Assembly (NCBI GenBank): GCA_903837785.1
Contig: CAILVY010000392.1
Coordinates: 1,140 to 65,139 of the forward strand
DNA from: Candidatus Hydrogenedentota bacterium
GTDB lineage: Bacteria; Hydrogenedentota; Hydrogenedentia; Hydrogenedentales; CAILVY01
Direction of reading: 5' to 3'
DNA length: 64,000 nt
A program made the position numbers and the translations under genes. The notes beneath the pieces are model-generated. The model was not told where the DNA came from. It did not search any database and worked only from the letters and a program-made list of their open reading frames with translations. Position 1 is the stretch's first letter. Every line of letters begins with the position of its first letter. Positions 42,685-45,600 of the stretch are shown in pieces.

Positions 42685-45600
42685 ATGAATACAGGGCTCG
42701 TACGAACCATCACCGCAGGCTGCTTGGCGGTTCTACTGATGTGTGCGCTGCCGGCGATGGCTCAGGATTCCTCGCAGGCGCCTGCCTCCGCGCCAGCCAA
42801 GGAGGATGCTGCGGCGCCCGCGGTGGGTGCGGCCATTGTGGCGCCCGCGCCGGCCCCGGAAGCGGAGTCCGCGGATCCCCAGGAATATCTCCGCCGCGGC
42901 GTGGCTCTGTACAAGCGGGACCTCTACCGCGAAGCCTTGACCGAGTTCAACCGCGCGCTTGCGCTGGATCCGAAGCTCGAAGAGGCGAAATCCTATGCGG
43001 AAAAATGCAGCGCCAAGCTGCAAGTGAGCGCCGCGGGCATCGACACTTCCTCCGTTCCGGTTTTTGAGACGGTGGATCCGGAAACCATCAAGGCGGGGGA
43101 GACGCCCCAGAAGAGCGCGGATGAAATCAAGCGCGAACGCGTCAAAGTCCTGATGAACGATGCCCAACGCTATCTCGAGGCAGAACGCTATGCGACCGCC
43201 GTGGAGATCTACAGCAACGTCCTTTTGATTGATCCCAACAATCGGGAAGCGAACGAGGGATTGCACAAGGCCACTTTGGGCGCCCACGAGGACTCCATGA
43301 AGGAGTCGCAAAAAGAGGTGACCGAAGACCGCGCCATGATTCGGGATCTCATCGAGAAAAAGAAGATGCTTCCGCAGGGCGCGGATGCCACCGGAATCAA
43401 GCCCTATCGTTTCGCGGTGCCCGAGATTGAAGAGGAGCATGTCGTCGAGACCGAGAAGTCAAAAGTGGAGGAAACCCTCGATTCGCCGGTGAGTGTCGAG
43501 TTCGAAGACATCCACATCAGCGAAATCGTGACCTTCATATCTGACAGTTGGGGCATGAACATCGTGATTGACACCCGCGCGGTGGAGCCCCCGAAGCGGG
43601 TCAACCCTGCGGCTGTTGCGGCGACGCCCGGCGGTCCGGGCGCTCCCGCGCCGTTCCCCGGCCCCGCAGGAGCCGGTGCTGCCCGTCCCGGTCTTCCGGC
43701 TGTGGCGGCCGGCGGTGCGCGTCCCGGCCAGGGCGGCAATCGTCCAGGCGGCGCTTCGCGGCCCTTCGGCGGTGGCGGCGTCCCGGGTTATGGCGCGGCG
43801 GCTCCGATGGGGGGAGGCTCCGGGGCTGCGGTGGACTATGCTTACGGCGCCAAGTCCGATGGCATCGTTCCGTACATCAATTTGAAGGACGTGTCGCTGG
43901 CCCAGGCCCTCCAGGCGCTCCTTCGCCCCTTGGGCCTGGATTACTCCGTTCAACCCGGGTTCATCTGGATCAGCAAGCCTGAAATCATCCGCCAGGAGAC
44001 CTTCGAGGAGTTGGAGACCCGCTACTACGAATTGCGCAACGCGGGCGCTGAAACCCTGTGGAAAGTCGTGCTCCGGAACCGTTTCGGCGGCTTTGGCGGC
44101 AGCGGCGGCGGCTATGGCGGCGGCATGGGCGGCGGGATGTATGGCGGCGGCATGGGTGGCCGCATGGGCGGCATGGGCGGCGGGTTGTATGGCGGCGGCA
44201 TGGGCGGCATGGGCGGCATGGGCGGCGGCATGTACGGCGGCGGCATGAGCGGCGGCTATGGCGGCGGCATGGGCGGTTATGGCGGCGGCATGGGCGGCTA
44301 TGGCGGTGGATACCGCGAAACGGGGCTCACCGGCCAGTCTTCGAGTGGTGCCGCGGATGGCCTCAGCTACGCGCAGCCACAGATGGGCGGCTATGGCGGT
44401 TACGGCGGCGGCATGAGTGGCGGTTATGGCGGCGGCATGGGTGGCGGCTATGGCGGCGGCATGGGCGGCATGGGCGGCGGGATGTATGGCGGCGGCATGG
44501 GCGGCATGGGCGGCATGGGCGGCGGGATGTATGGCGGCGGCATGGGCGGCCGCATGGGCGGCATGGGCGGCATGGGCGGCATGGGCGGCATGGGCGGCGG
44601 AAGCGGCATGGATGTCACCGCGGTGAGCAACATCTCGGACTTATTCAGCAGCATCTCCGACATGATGGTCGGCGAACCGCCGGCTACTATTGGCGCCGTG
44701 GGCATGACCGGGCTCGGGAGCCGCCGTGGCGGCGCAGGCATGACCGGCGGCCTGGGTGCGGGCAGCCGCGTGGGATCGTTGGGCGCGACCTCGGACGATT
44801 CGTCCTCGAGCGTTCTGGACAGTCTGGACATTCTGCTGCATTCGCTGCCGGATGTGAAGGAGCCCTACACGCAGGAACTGCTCTCGAGCAAGTTCTACAA
44901 CACCGCCACGAACGTGCTGGTGGTGAAGAACACGAAATCCAACCTGGACAAATTTGAGAAGGTGCTGGCGGAAGTGGATGTCACCCCGAAACAGGTGAGC
45001 ATCGAGGCGAAATTCCTCACGGTCCGCACAACCGACCTTGACAAGATCGGATTCAAGTGGGACGCCACGTTGTCGGATCTCAACAACCGCACGCGACAGA
45101 TTCCGACGGCGGCCGCATCGACGTACAGTTACGACGTCAACGGCGACGGTGTGGATGAGGAAATCCCCTTCTACAGCCGTCCCGACGGCAGTCAGGTGAT
45201 TCGCAACACAGTCACGAGCGCGACGATTGGCGCTCTGACGAGCCCGGCCACCACCGGTGTTCCTGCCCTGAGTCTGGCAGGGAAGATTCTCGAGAACAAG
45301 GATGGCGACTCACTTGGAGTCACGTTTGACTTTGTGGACAGCCTCACGGAATCGGAGTTGCTGAGTGCGCCGCGGGTGACCACGATGAACCGGAAGCCGG
45401 CCATCATCGCGGACTTCGCCACCGAGTATTTCGTGTCGCAGGTGAACAACGAGATCTATACCAGCCAAGCCGGTTTCGGCGGCACGCCGACGACTTCGTA
45501 TATCCAGAATGTCACGCCGGTTTCCTTCAATTTCGGCATCGCGTTCTCGGTTACCCCGCAGATCCGGGACAACGATCAGGTGCGCCTCTGGCTGAATCCT

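Follow-up and report, generated by a model that had tools for sequence, protein, structure and literature searches.

A Hydrogenedentota secretin of a type IV pilus-like system carries a long, hypervariable Gly/Met/Tyr insertion within a predicted N3-like ring domain

We analysed a 64,000-nucleotide (nt) stretch of DNA from a Candidatus Hydrogenedentota bacterium (contig CAILVY010000392.1, positions 1,140 to 65,139; hereafter, the window), which encodes the secretin of a type IV pilus-like system. This protein is a secretin with an unprecedented, compositionally constrained and hypervariable insertion, predicted to be disordered and to lie beside its gate. Most of the insertion is a Gly/Met/Tyr tract, an intrinsically disordered and slippage-prone segment of the sticker-and-spacer kind, where runs of two or three Gly are punctuated by Met and Tyr. 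According to structural models, the tract forms the bulk of a closed loop of about 258 amino acids (aa), inserted after strand β1 of a split N3-like ring domain (β-α-β-β-α). We tentatively propose, with somewhat less than even confidence, that the tract loops constitute a collar or plug under the gate, soft, of weak cohesion and open to displacement. The secretin gene is organized as follows (pLDDT, predicted local distance difference test of AlphaFold2).

42625..46002, + strand: secretin gene, an open reading frame (ORF) of 1125 aa counted from TTG
42877..43365, + strand: N-terminal TPR/helical module, aa 85-247 (Pfam TPR_1/TPR_2; AlphaFold2 helices with pLDDT >90)
43486..43998, + strand: N0/STN-like domain, aa 288-458 (AlphaFold2 secondary structure and pLDDT; sub-threshold Pfam STN match at aa 418-451)
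43588-43860, + strand: P/G/A-rich disordered insertion within the N0/STN fold, aa 322-412, also found in orthologs
44008..44031, + strand: strand β1 (ELETRYYE) of the N3-like ring-building domain, aa 462-469 (AlphaFold2 strand, hhalign)
44047..44085, + strand: conserved amphipathic helix AETLWKVVLRNRF opening the insertion, aa 475-487 (AlphaFold2 helix 475-488; in all orthologs)
44086..44313, + strand: Gly/Met/Tyr block 1, aa 488-563, 76 aa (AlphaFold2 pLDDT ~32, without secondary structure)
44314..44382, + strand: non-repeat spacer RETGLTGQSSSGAADGLSYAQPQ separating the two blocks, aa 564-586, 23 aa
44383..44610, + strand: Gly/Met/Tyr block 2, aa 587-662, 76 aa, holding a 123-nt copy from block 1
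44611..44685, + strand: conserved island DVTAVSNISDLFSSISDMMVGEPPA, aa 663-687, 25 aa, with the motif SNIS.LF...D..VGE.PA
44686..44805, + strand: second low-complexity stretch, G/S/T/A/R-rich, aa 688-727 (pLDDT <50), which ends the ~258-aa insertion
44806..44976, + strand: rest of the N3-like ring domain, namely α1 (aa 728-739), β2, β3 and α2 (to aa 784) (AlphaFold2, hhalign, partial Pfam Secretin_N match)
44992..45900, + strand: secretin β-barrel core, aa 790-1092 (Pfam, AlphaFold2, Foldseek)

The original prediction, made from the DNA letters, had placed two Gly/Met/Tyr blocks within 44086-44610, and both are indeed found there, including the quoted string verbatim. Each block is exactly 76 aa long; Gly accounts for 66-67% of it, Met for 16-22% and Tyr for 8-11%. 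In both blocks, runs of two or three Gly alternate with the separators M, Y, MY, RM, MS, LY, F or S. The DNA had been described as reiterated units, and Tandem Repeats Finder detects period-9 GGCGGCATG arrays together with higher-order periods. The pattern GGCGGCATGGGCGGC, with at most one mismatch allowed, has 22 matches, all located at 44119-44598 on the + strand, compared with 0.07 expected from shuffles. Furthermore, a 123-nt part of block 1 (44143-44265) is repeated in block 2 (44440-44562) with 89% identity. The reading frame is unbroken through the tract and, since this continuous frame is flanked on both sides by ortholog-conserved sequence, the overlapping ORFs 44058-44957 (+) and 44448-44831 (-) are shadow frames. 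The other linkers of the same protein have an ordinary P/G/A- or G/S/T/A-rich composition.

The assignment of the protein to the secretins, already proposed in the original prediction, is borne out by both profile and structure comparisons. The Pfam Secretin family (PF00263) matches aa 907-1092 with 120.3 bits (cut-off 27.5; E = 8.4e-35), and a Foldseek search with the AlphaFold2 model retrieves GspD, PilQ, InvG and pIV (E = 4e-14), the nearest solved structures being the PilQ of V. cholerae (6w6m) and N. meningitidis, followed by GspD. The actual start codon is probably the ATG at 42685, followed by the signal peptide MNTGLVRTITAGCLAVLLMCALPAMA. Pfam TPR repeats are present at aa 86-121; there is no Pfam match to an AMIN domain in the secretin, and the TPR module holds the N-terminus. 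The putative N0 domain gives a Pfam STN match of 22.3 bits, under the 28.4 cut-off, and a weak match to PilQ N0 (PDB 4ar0, E = 0.68). AlphaFold2 models it as a β-α-β unit (aa 288-315) and a β-α-β-β unit (aa 414-450, pLDDT ~90) on either side of a stretch with pLDDT <50 (aa 325-410), in agreement with the earlier claim that a P/G/A-rich insertion (at about 43590-43860) splits the N0-like domain.

Three NCBIfam models match the protein below their thresholds: TIGR02515 (PilQ) with 147.4 bits under a cut-off of 284, TIGR02517 (GspD) with 144.1 bits under a cut-off of 351, the domains found being N0 and one N3-like only, and NF042912 (Amuc_1098 family) with 118.4 bits under a cut-off of 750, its alignment being confined to the C-terminal half. 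Since these scores are far under the PilQ, GspD and Amuc_1098 cut-offs and the accompanying PilM is Amuc_1101-like, we call the protein a secretin of a Planctomycetes-Verrucomicrobia-Chlamydiae (PVC)-type, type IV pilus-like system rather than a canonical PilQ.

To position the tract within the fold, AlphaFold2 monomer models of the full protein (67-sequence alignment) and of P0004, a natural short-tract ortholog, were used. The TPR module, the split N0/STN fold, the β-α-β-β-α unit and the barrel are modelled with confidence, aa 476-671 and 682-728 have mostly pLDDT <50, and the tract itself stays at pLDDT ~32 without any secondary structure in the two models. The N3-like unit starts with β1 at aa 463-469 (TRYYELR) and continues, far downstream, with a helix (aa 728-739), two strands (aa 755-759 and 764-770) and a second helix (aa 771-784), all with pLDDT 79-91. 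The same pairing was obtained with hhalign: a tract-deleted Hydrogenedentota profile aligns to the matching region of 26 distant secretins with a probability of 99.3, placing β1 on ETRYYEL ('lETR.y.L' in related secretins) and α1 on aa 728-739. In the tract-less relatives P0083 and P0086, a low-complexity loop of 22-45 aa occupies the same place and is followed by α1 (DIKKLF..G..FP), with which their Pfam Secretin_N alignment begins. The Secretin_N match of the protein studied here is partial and sub-threshold, and when, to decide on the identity of α1, candidate β1-α1 pairs were spliced onto the β2-β3-α2 core, every construct matched positions 39-69 of the Secretin_N profile only.

The predicted loop thus contains, in order, the conserved helix (475-487), the tract (488-662), the island (663-687) and the second low-complexity stretch (688-727), and both its ends are anchored on the ring domain directly beneath the secretin gate. 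The original prediction located the tract between N0 and the secretin core. This does not hold in the sense of a linker joining N0 to the core, and it does hold in that the tract lies in this region, within the N3-like domain after β1. Indeed, the gap between N0 and β1 is only about 12 residues and the tract comes after β1, which speaks against a tether or entropic spring between N0 and the core and makes the tract a loop rather than an inter-domain tether.

Homologs of this secretin are concentrated in a single phylum. About 80 close homologs of the C-terminal half were found (43-75% identity), almost all from metagenome-assembled genomes (MAGs) of Candidatus Hydrogenedentota, and 38 loci, all with identical gene order around the secretin, were located among the GTDB species genomes. 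With the motifs YYELRNAG.ETL.K.VLRN and DVT..SNISDLF used as anchors of the tract, a Gly-rich tract is present in 19/19 GTDB loci that contain both, including two complete chromosomes where it is in frame (L005 and L029; OY782877.1 and OW818658.1). In the 18 loci without assembly gaps, the shortest tract has 17 aa and the longest 172 aa (median 119), and the nearest genome (L001, 75% identity) shows the same two-block layout of about 170 aa, spacer included. An exhaustive phmmer search over 1.84 billion representative proteins yielded 15 full-length Hydrogenedentota-type representatives, 14 of which carry the tract. A homolog search with aa 225-487 returned 9 proteins only, low-complexity words probably saturating the candidate list. 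Seven 'binchicken' MAGs (L001, L004, L011, L023, L027, L037 and L038) are titled 'uncultured Nitrospirales bacterium' and contain a Hydrogenedentota-type locus with full synteny; these titles look wrong, and P0122 ('Bryobacteraceae') and P0028 ('Nitrospiraceae') may be mis-binned likewise.

More distant relatives point to the same site. Among 83 distant full-length relatives, 20 (24%) have a Gly-rich loop there, of 22-80 aa, ordinary composition and ~10% acidic residues. From these alignments, the β1-α1 site appears as a clade-wide insertion hotspot, of which the Hydrogenedentota version is extreme, acid-free and sticker-rich.

The island following the tract behaves differently from its surroundings: it is near-invariant across 18 genomes, as conserved as the folded domains, and both flanks vary freely. 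Its sequence (DVT..SNISDLF...D..VGE.PA) resembles helix α1 of related secretins (DIKKLF..G..FP), so that duplication of α1 is a possible origin, and a docking motif another possible reading. These observations give weight to an alternative where the 25-aa island is the functional element, the Gly tract and the second low-complexity stretch being flexible tethers that let it reach or leave a partner such as a neighbouring subunit, the gate, the inner-membrane platform or the pilus; in a variant, 12-15 islands would assemble into a tethered plug. Either flank may be the expanded one, as in P0173, where 27 aa precede the island and 110 aa follow, the latter forming a long G/Y/T/R tract. Moreover, P0175 keeps the island although a 14-aa non-Gly link replaces the tract and its second low-complexity stretch is Asn/Tyr-rich, and the low pLDDT of the island in the AlphaFold2 monomer models is expected for an element folding on binding. 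However, a pure tether needs neither a regular spacing of Met/Tyr/Phe/Leu nor the exclusion of acidic residues, Lys and Pro, and the ordinary linkers of the same protein differ in composition. We therefore regard this tethered-island explanation as possible, though rather unlikely.

The length of the tract differs even between very close relatives. For instance, P0132 and P0133 have 1 mismatch in 932 aa and one 32-aa in-frame tract indel, P0139 and P0147 differ by a 12-aa and P0163 and P0165 by a 15-aa in-frame tract indel, both pairs with 0 mismatches, and P0003 and P0004 differ by an 18-aa indel and one neighbouring residue. These pairwise indels could be either true strain polymorphism or assembler collapse. 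The repeats had been predicted to be prone to slippage and length variation, which fits these near-identical proteins (~1000 aa) that differ by tract indels of 12, 15 and 32 aa only.

Assembly quality has to be considered here, since the tract visibly disturbs contigs. As many as 21/38 GTDB loci begin at a contig end without the upstream half of the gene, 14 of them within the tract, and in two further loci the tract is interrupted by N-runs; the secretin gene is often deposited in databases as 'partial' halves. In view of these contig breaks and N-runs, no short-read assembly, perhaps this window among them, gives the exact tract length with certainty. The original prediction had allowed for the tract being an assembly artefact or being absent from orthologs, and neither is the case, as it occurs in two complete chromosomes and in nearly all Hydrogenedentota orthologs. 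Although the broken contigs could suggest a mis-assembled repeat, the tract is in frame in L005, L029 and many long contigs, and the independent genome L001 reproduces the two-block layout. A mis-assembled repeat, or a plain N0-to-core linker, which the short N0-β1 gap speaks against, is therefore a highly improbable explanation. A practical consequence is that the tract breaks short-read assemblies, so that many Hydrogenedentota MAGs list the product of this gene as two 'partial' proteins.

The composition of the tract follows rules that hold across lineages. The pooled sequence of the 18 gap-free genome loci (1946 tract residues) contains 68% G, 7.2% M, 5.4% S, 4.9% Y, 4.5% F, 3.5% Q and 1.9% R, with M+Y+F+L amounting to ~18%. 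Lys is absent (0), D+E reach 0.4% and Pro 0.05%, and Asp is confined to the non-repeat spacers of two-block tracts. The Ser:Asp ratio is 105:7, though both residues are one transition away from GGY codons. The identity of the non-Gly residue is lineage-specific: M/Y in the clade of the window, and F/Q, F/L/Q, Y alone, Y/S/N/R, Y/L, T/S/I or GM dipeptides elsewhere. Hydrophobic and aromatic stickers account for 9-32% of the tract with a median spacing of 3-10 residues, and the tract is present in genomes of 41% to 65% GC. Since ordinary linkers elsewhere in the protein are different, since Ser and Asp are so asymmetric and since the tract persists across this GC range, its composition appears to be selected: flexible, uncharged, proline-free and with 9-32% stickers. 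A GC-bias artefact was rejected, the tract persisting at 41% GC with GGT and GGA codons. Binding of Cu/Ag by MxxM motifs was discarded as well, Met being swapped for Phe, Tyr or Leu in sister lineages.

These rules also bear on a near-neutral origin, in which a tolerant β1-α1 loop would be inflated and deflated by slippage of GGN-GGN-NNN units, selection removing only variants that fold, carry charge or get cleaved, and the tract having no positive function. Such an expansion would account for the 12-32-aa indels between otherwise identical genes, the 17-172-aa span of lengths, the Gly-rich loops at the same site in 24% of distant relatives, and the near-perfect 9-nt DNA repeat with its recent 123-nt duplication. 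On the other hand, the tract is kept in essentially the whole phylum at a median of ~119 aa and at 41-65% GC, its hydrophobic/aromatic share is always 9-32%, and the 105:7 ratio of Ser to Asp points to compositional selection beyond tolerance. A purely near-neutral expansion is thus unlikely.

The proposed collar or plug would arise from the geometry of the oligomer. Solved secretin entries contain 12-15 chains, in line with the 12-15-mers cited in the original prediction, and we assume this stoichiometry from the solved homologs. In a pore of 12-15 subunits, as many loops would emerge side by side around the channel and could form a dense, weakly self-adhesive and deformable polymer collar or plug at the periplasmic mouth, below the gate. 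This polymer layer would add a permeability barrier while the channel is empty; a passing pilus would push it aside, and perhaps be sealed around by it. The luminal, gate-proximal site of the loops, their cohesiveness and their role as barrier or gasket are inferred by analogy with other systems. Among the roles suggested in the original prediction, a gel-like gasket or compliant seal would be topologically plausible, whereas a chaperoning surface is purely speculative.

The location at the top of the N3-like ring, beside the gate, is suggested by analogy with InvG, a type III secretion system (T3SS) secretin. In N3 of InvG, a hairpin before the first helix props the gate hairpins from below, and a disordered variable loop has been proposed to form a periplasmic constriction that reorders or is displaced when the needle fills the lumen (PMC6155069). 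As the InvG hairpin lies at the equivalent site under the gate, an under-gate location is reasonable here. We also estimated the volumes involved: 14 tracts would occupy ~240 nm^3 dry and 14 whole insertions ~377 nm^3, and the sub-gate chamber measures ~190-250 nm^3. The chains would thus fill the empty vestibule and leave no room beside a pilus, so they must be displaceable. Additional barriers have precedents in other bacteria: secretins leak, and in P. aeruginosa the lumen under the PilQ gate is plugged by two mobile proteins, SlkA and SlkB (PMC13392014); an optional top gate raises the impermeability of a type II secretin (PMC10550240). As for the material, phase separation followed by gelling is known for Gly-rich chains in which aromatics and Arg recur periodically (PMC11794139), and the GGM tails of GroEL block the floor of the cavity, being 30-40% polyproline-II and abductin-like (PMC12571646).

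Several points weigh against the collar or plug. The length of the tract is ten-fold variable, down to 17 aa in L003, and P0175 is tract-less, which indicates that no set amount of chain is needed; the strain-level indels likewise suggest a weak length constraint. Met is a weaker sticker than aromatics, and the cohesiveness of the chains is an assumption. The luminal orientation would follow from the T3SS secretin analogy, and since 14 tracts (~240 nm^3 dry) together with a pilus exceed the vestibule, most of the chain may lie below the ring or on its outside. Conservation of the island raises the possibility that the flexible flanks serve only for its display. Finally, Hydrogenedentota is an uncultured phylum.

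A bolder version of the collar would be a built-in counterpart of the nuclear-pore FG barrier, the loops condensing into a self-healing, selectively permeable phase under the gate with the island as a tethered latch. The sequence traits of FG-nucleoporins are present, namely disorder (pLDDT ~32), 0 K, 0.4% D+E and 9-32% stickers; still, this version seems doubtful to us.

Comparison with known secretins delimits what is particular to the Hydrogenedentota protein. As in PilQ (6w6m from V. cholerae, 4av2 from N. meningitidis and 6ve2 from P. aeruginosa) and GspD, the β-barrel core is preceded by an N3-type ring and an N0/STN domain and the gene is accompanied by PilM, PilB-like, PilT-like and PilC genes and by pseudopilins. 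Unlike them, the protein has no AMIN and no N1/N2 domains, carries an N-terminal TPR module, and has a long disordered insertion in each of its N0 and N3-like domains; nothing like a 175-aa Gly-rich tract occurs in any solved secretin. The order TPR, N0, N3-like, secretin is shared with the Amuc_1098 family and PVC-type TPR-secretins (Victivallales, Lentisphaerae, Verrucomicrobia). In roughly one in four of these relatives the β1-α1 site likewise holds a Gly-rich loop, but their loops are 22-80 aa long (median 34), with 47% G together with A, S, D and P and ~10% acidic residues, and they lack the conserved helix and island, identity being ~30%. Literature searches found no papers on Gly-rich tracts in secretins or on Hydrogenedentota pili.

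Lineage-specific N3 insertions near the gate are also known from InvG (PMC6155069), though there one is a short hairpin with an ordered structure and the other a loop of ~50 aa with an ordinary composition, whereas the Hydrogenedentota insertion reaches ~258 aa, is mostly Gly repeat and is hypervariable. SlkA/SlkB provide a mobile luminal mass under the PilQ gate that is displaced on machine docking, and the top gate of the type II secretion system likewise offsets leakiness (PMC13392014, PMC10550240). However, SlkA/SlkB are separate folded proteins and the top gate is an ordered apical loop, whereas the candidate plug of Hydrogenedentota would be a disordered part of the secretin itself.

The (GGM)n motif had been traced to chaperonin tails in the original prediction, and database matches agree (PMC12571646). 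A (GGM)6 DNA pattern has at least 120 loci in GTDB genomes; among the matches listed, a chaperonin motif flags 69, and ORF inspection reads ~117 of the 120 as C-terminal tails of chaperonins or thermosomes. None of the matches listed is a secretin. Rare non-chaperonin matches with long (GGM)n tracts include L070, a 780-aa ORF (+) of Planctomycetaceae ending in ~70 residues of GGM/GM repeat, L156 with a similar internal tract, and L076, a Xylophilus ORF with an internal (GGM)8. With GroEL/Hsp60 tails, the secretin tract shares GGM units and the presence of many flexible copies in a ring, anchored on the inner wall in GroEL and presumably so here. The GroEL tails are free C-termini of ~13-30 residues, with a strict GGM register and in the cytoplasm, whereas the tract is an internal closed loop, ~10x longer, of irregular register, Tyr-containing and periplasmic.

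The polyproline-II content of the GroEL tails (30-40%, abductin-like; PMC12571646) raises another possibility, an ordered polyproline-II helix bundle of the snow-flea antifreeze protein or abductin type that would form a structured elastic ring; bundling is conceivable at the local concentrations of a 14-mer. Such a fold is very unlikely, since the tract has no strict 3-residue register, mixing Gly runs of 2 and 3 with the double words MY, RM and LY, other lineages have G4-G6 runs, the AlphaFold2 models show no structure, and a ten-fold length variation is hard to square with a defined fold.

Similarity to Gly-rich cohesive or elastomeric domains, such as the tick cement glycine-rich protein (GRP) and abductin, concerns composition only, without homology: uncharged Gly spacers with regular aromatic, Met or Leu stickers. 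FG-nucleoporins, FUS-like [G/S]Y[G/S] sequences and spider-silk GGX have a similar sticker-spacer composition, Met-rich stickers being less studied. Individual lineages mimic such domains, with GGFGGQ, SSYGSSGSRSG and GGYGGGM tracts. For the tick GRP, chains with 9-20% aromatics phase-separate and gel (PMC11794139).

The secretin gene is the last of a one-strand operon and is followed by KdtA. The pilus-machine setting anticipated earlier is confirmed by Pfam, the operon being type IV pilus-like: it comprises genes for three ATPases (two PilB-like, one PilT-like), PilC and three pseudopilins, for a GspK-like protein of 3036 aa, a second large protein of 1523 aa and a PEGA/FGE-sulfatase protein, and for PilM and the secretin, as well as two unannotated genes. 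Two genes upstream of the secretin are listed below.

38880..41096, + strand: PilM-like gene, 738 aa (Pfam PilM_2, E = 1e-45; NCBIfam pilM over its cut-off)
42107..42616, + strand: 169-aa gene upstream of the secretin, encoding a membrane anchor, a Pro-rich linker and a small β-domain, with phylum-wide synteny

The NCBIfam Amuc_1101 family matches aa 9-480 of the PilM-like protein below its cut-off. At 738 aa, this PilM is about twice the usual size and its C-terminal extension ends in a Pro/Gly-rich tail, PPGPPGPPGPPG... The 169-aa product has no Pfam or NCBIfam match, and we read its sequence as that of a putative PilP-like protein. P0125 and P0124 are paralog-like proteins with two tandem split STN/N0-like domains, fused in P0125 to a C-terminal PilP-like β-domain that resembles the 169-aa product (42107-42616). 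This fusion hints that the N0 domain and the 169-aa protein are partners.

At the head of the operon (13080-17874, +), the two PilB-like ATPases, each with an MshEN domain, lie on either side of the PilT-like ATPase. The 3036-aa protein (23286-32396, +) has a hydrophobic, pseudopilin/GspK-like N-terminal segment and only a weak Lamin Tail Domain match. Its gene is followed by that of the 1523-aa secreted protein (32551-37122), without Pfam match, whose orthologs (26-31% identity) are conserved throughout the phylum in a position upstream of the secretin. Between this gene and pilM lies that of the PEGA and FGE-sulfatase (formylglycine-generating enzyme-like) protein (37233-38660, +), an unusual partner for a pilus machine that is syntenic in every Hydrogenedentota locus with sufficient flank. 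A related-locus search queried with the 3036-aa protein returned no relatives, and one queried with the PEGA/FGE-sulfatase protein was dominated by FGE homologs of Nitrospira and Poribacteria. As the whole locus is conserved phylum-wide, any co-occurrence of the tract with the 3036-aa GspK-like protein would be confounded.

Among the holes of the Gram-negative outer membrane, those of secretins are the largest, and their tightness is a current question, on which recent work has brought to light additional gates and plug proteins encoded separately. About 2,000-2,600 residues of uncharged Gly/Met/Tyr chain per channel, placed beside the gate throughout a phylum, would be a different solution, the channel having its own disordered barrier or cushion. 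Sticker-spacer low-complexity domains with visible compositional selection would then have a rare example in the periplasm of bacteria, for which long, short and absent variants exist in nature (P0132 and P0133, L003, P0175). If the FG-like version were true, the phase would exclude small toxic solutes while letting the pilus and the very large GspK-like tip protein melt through, and no polymer-phase gate would have been described before it for any outer-membrane channel of bacteria.

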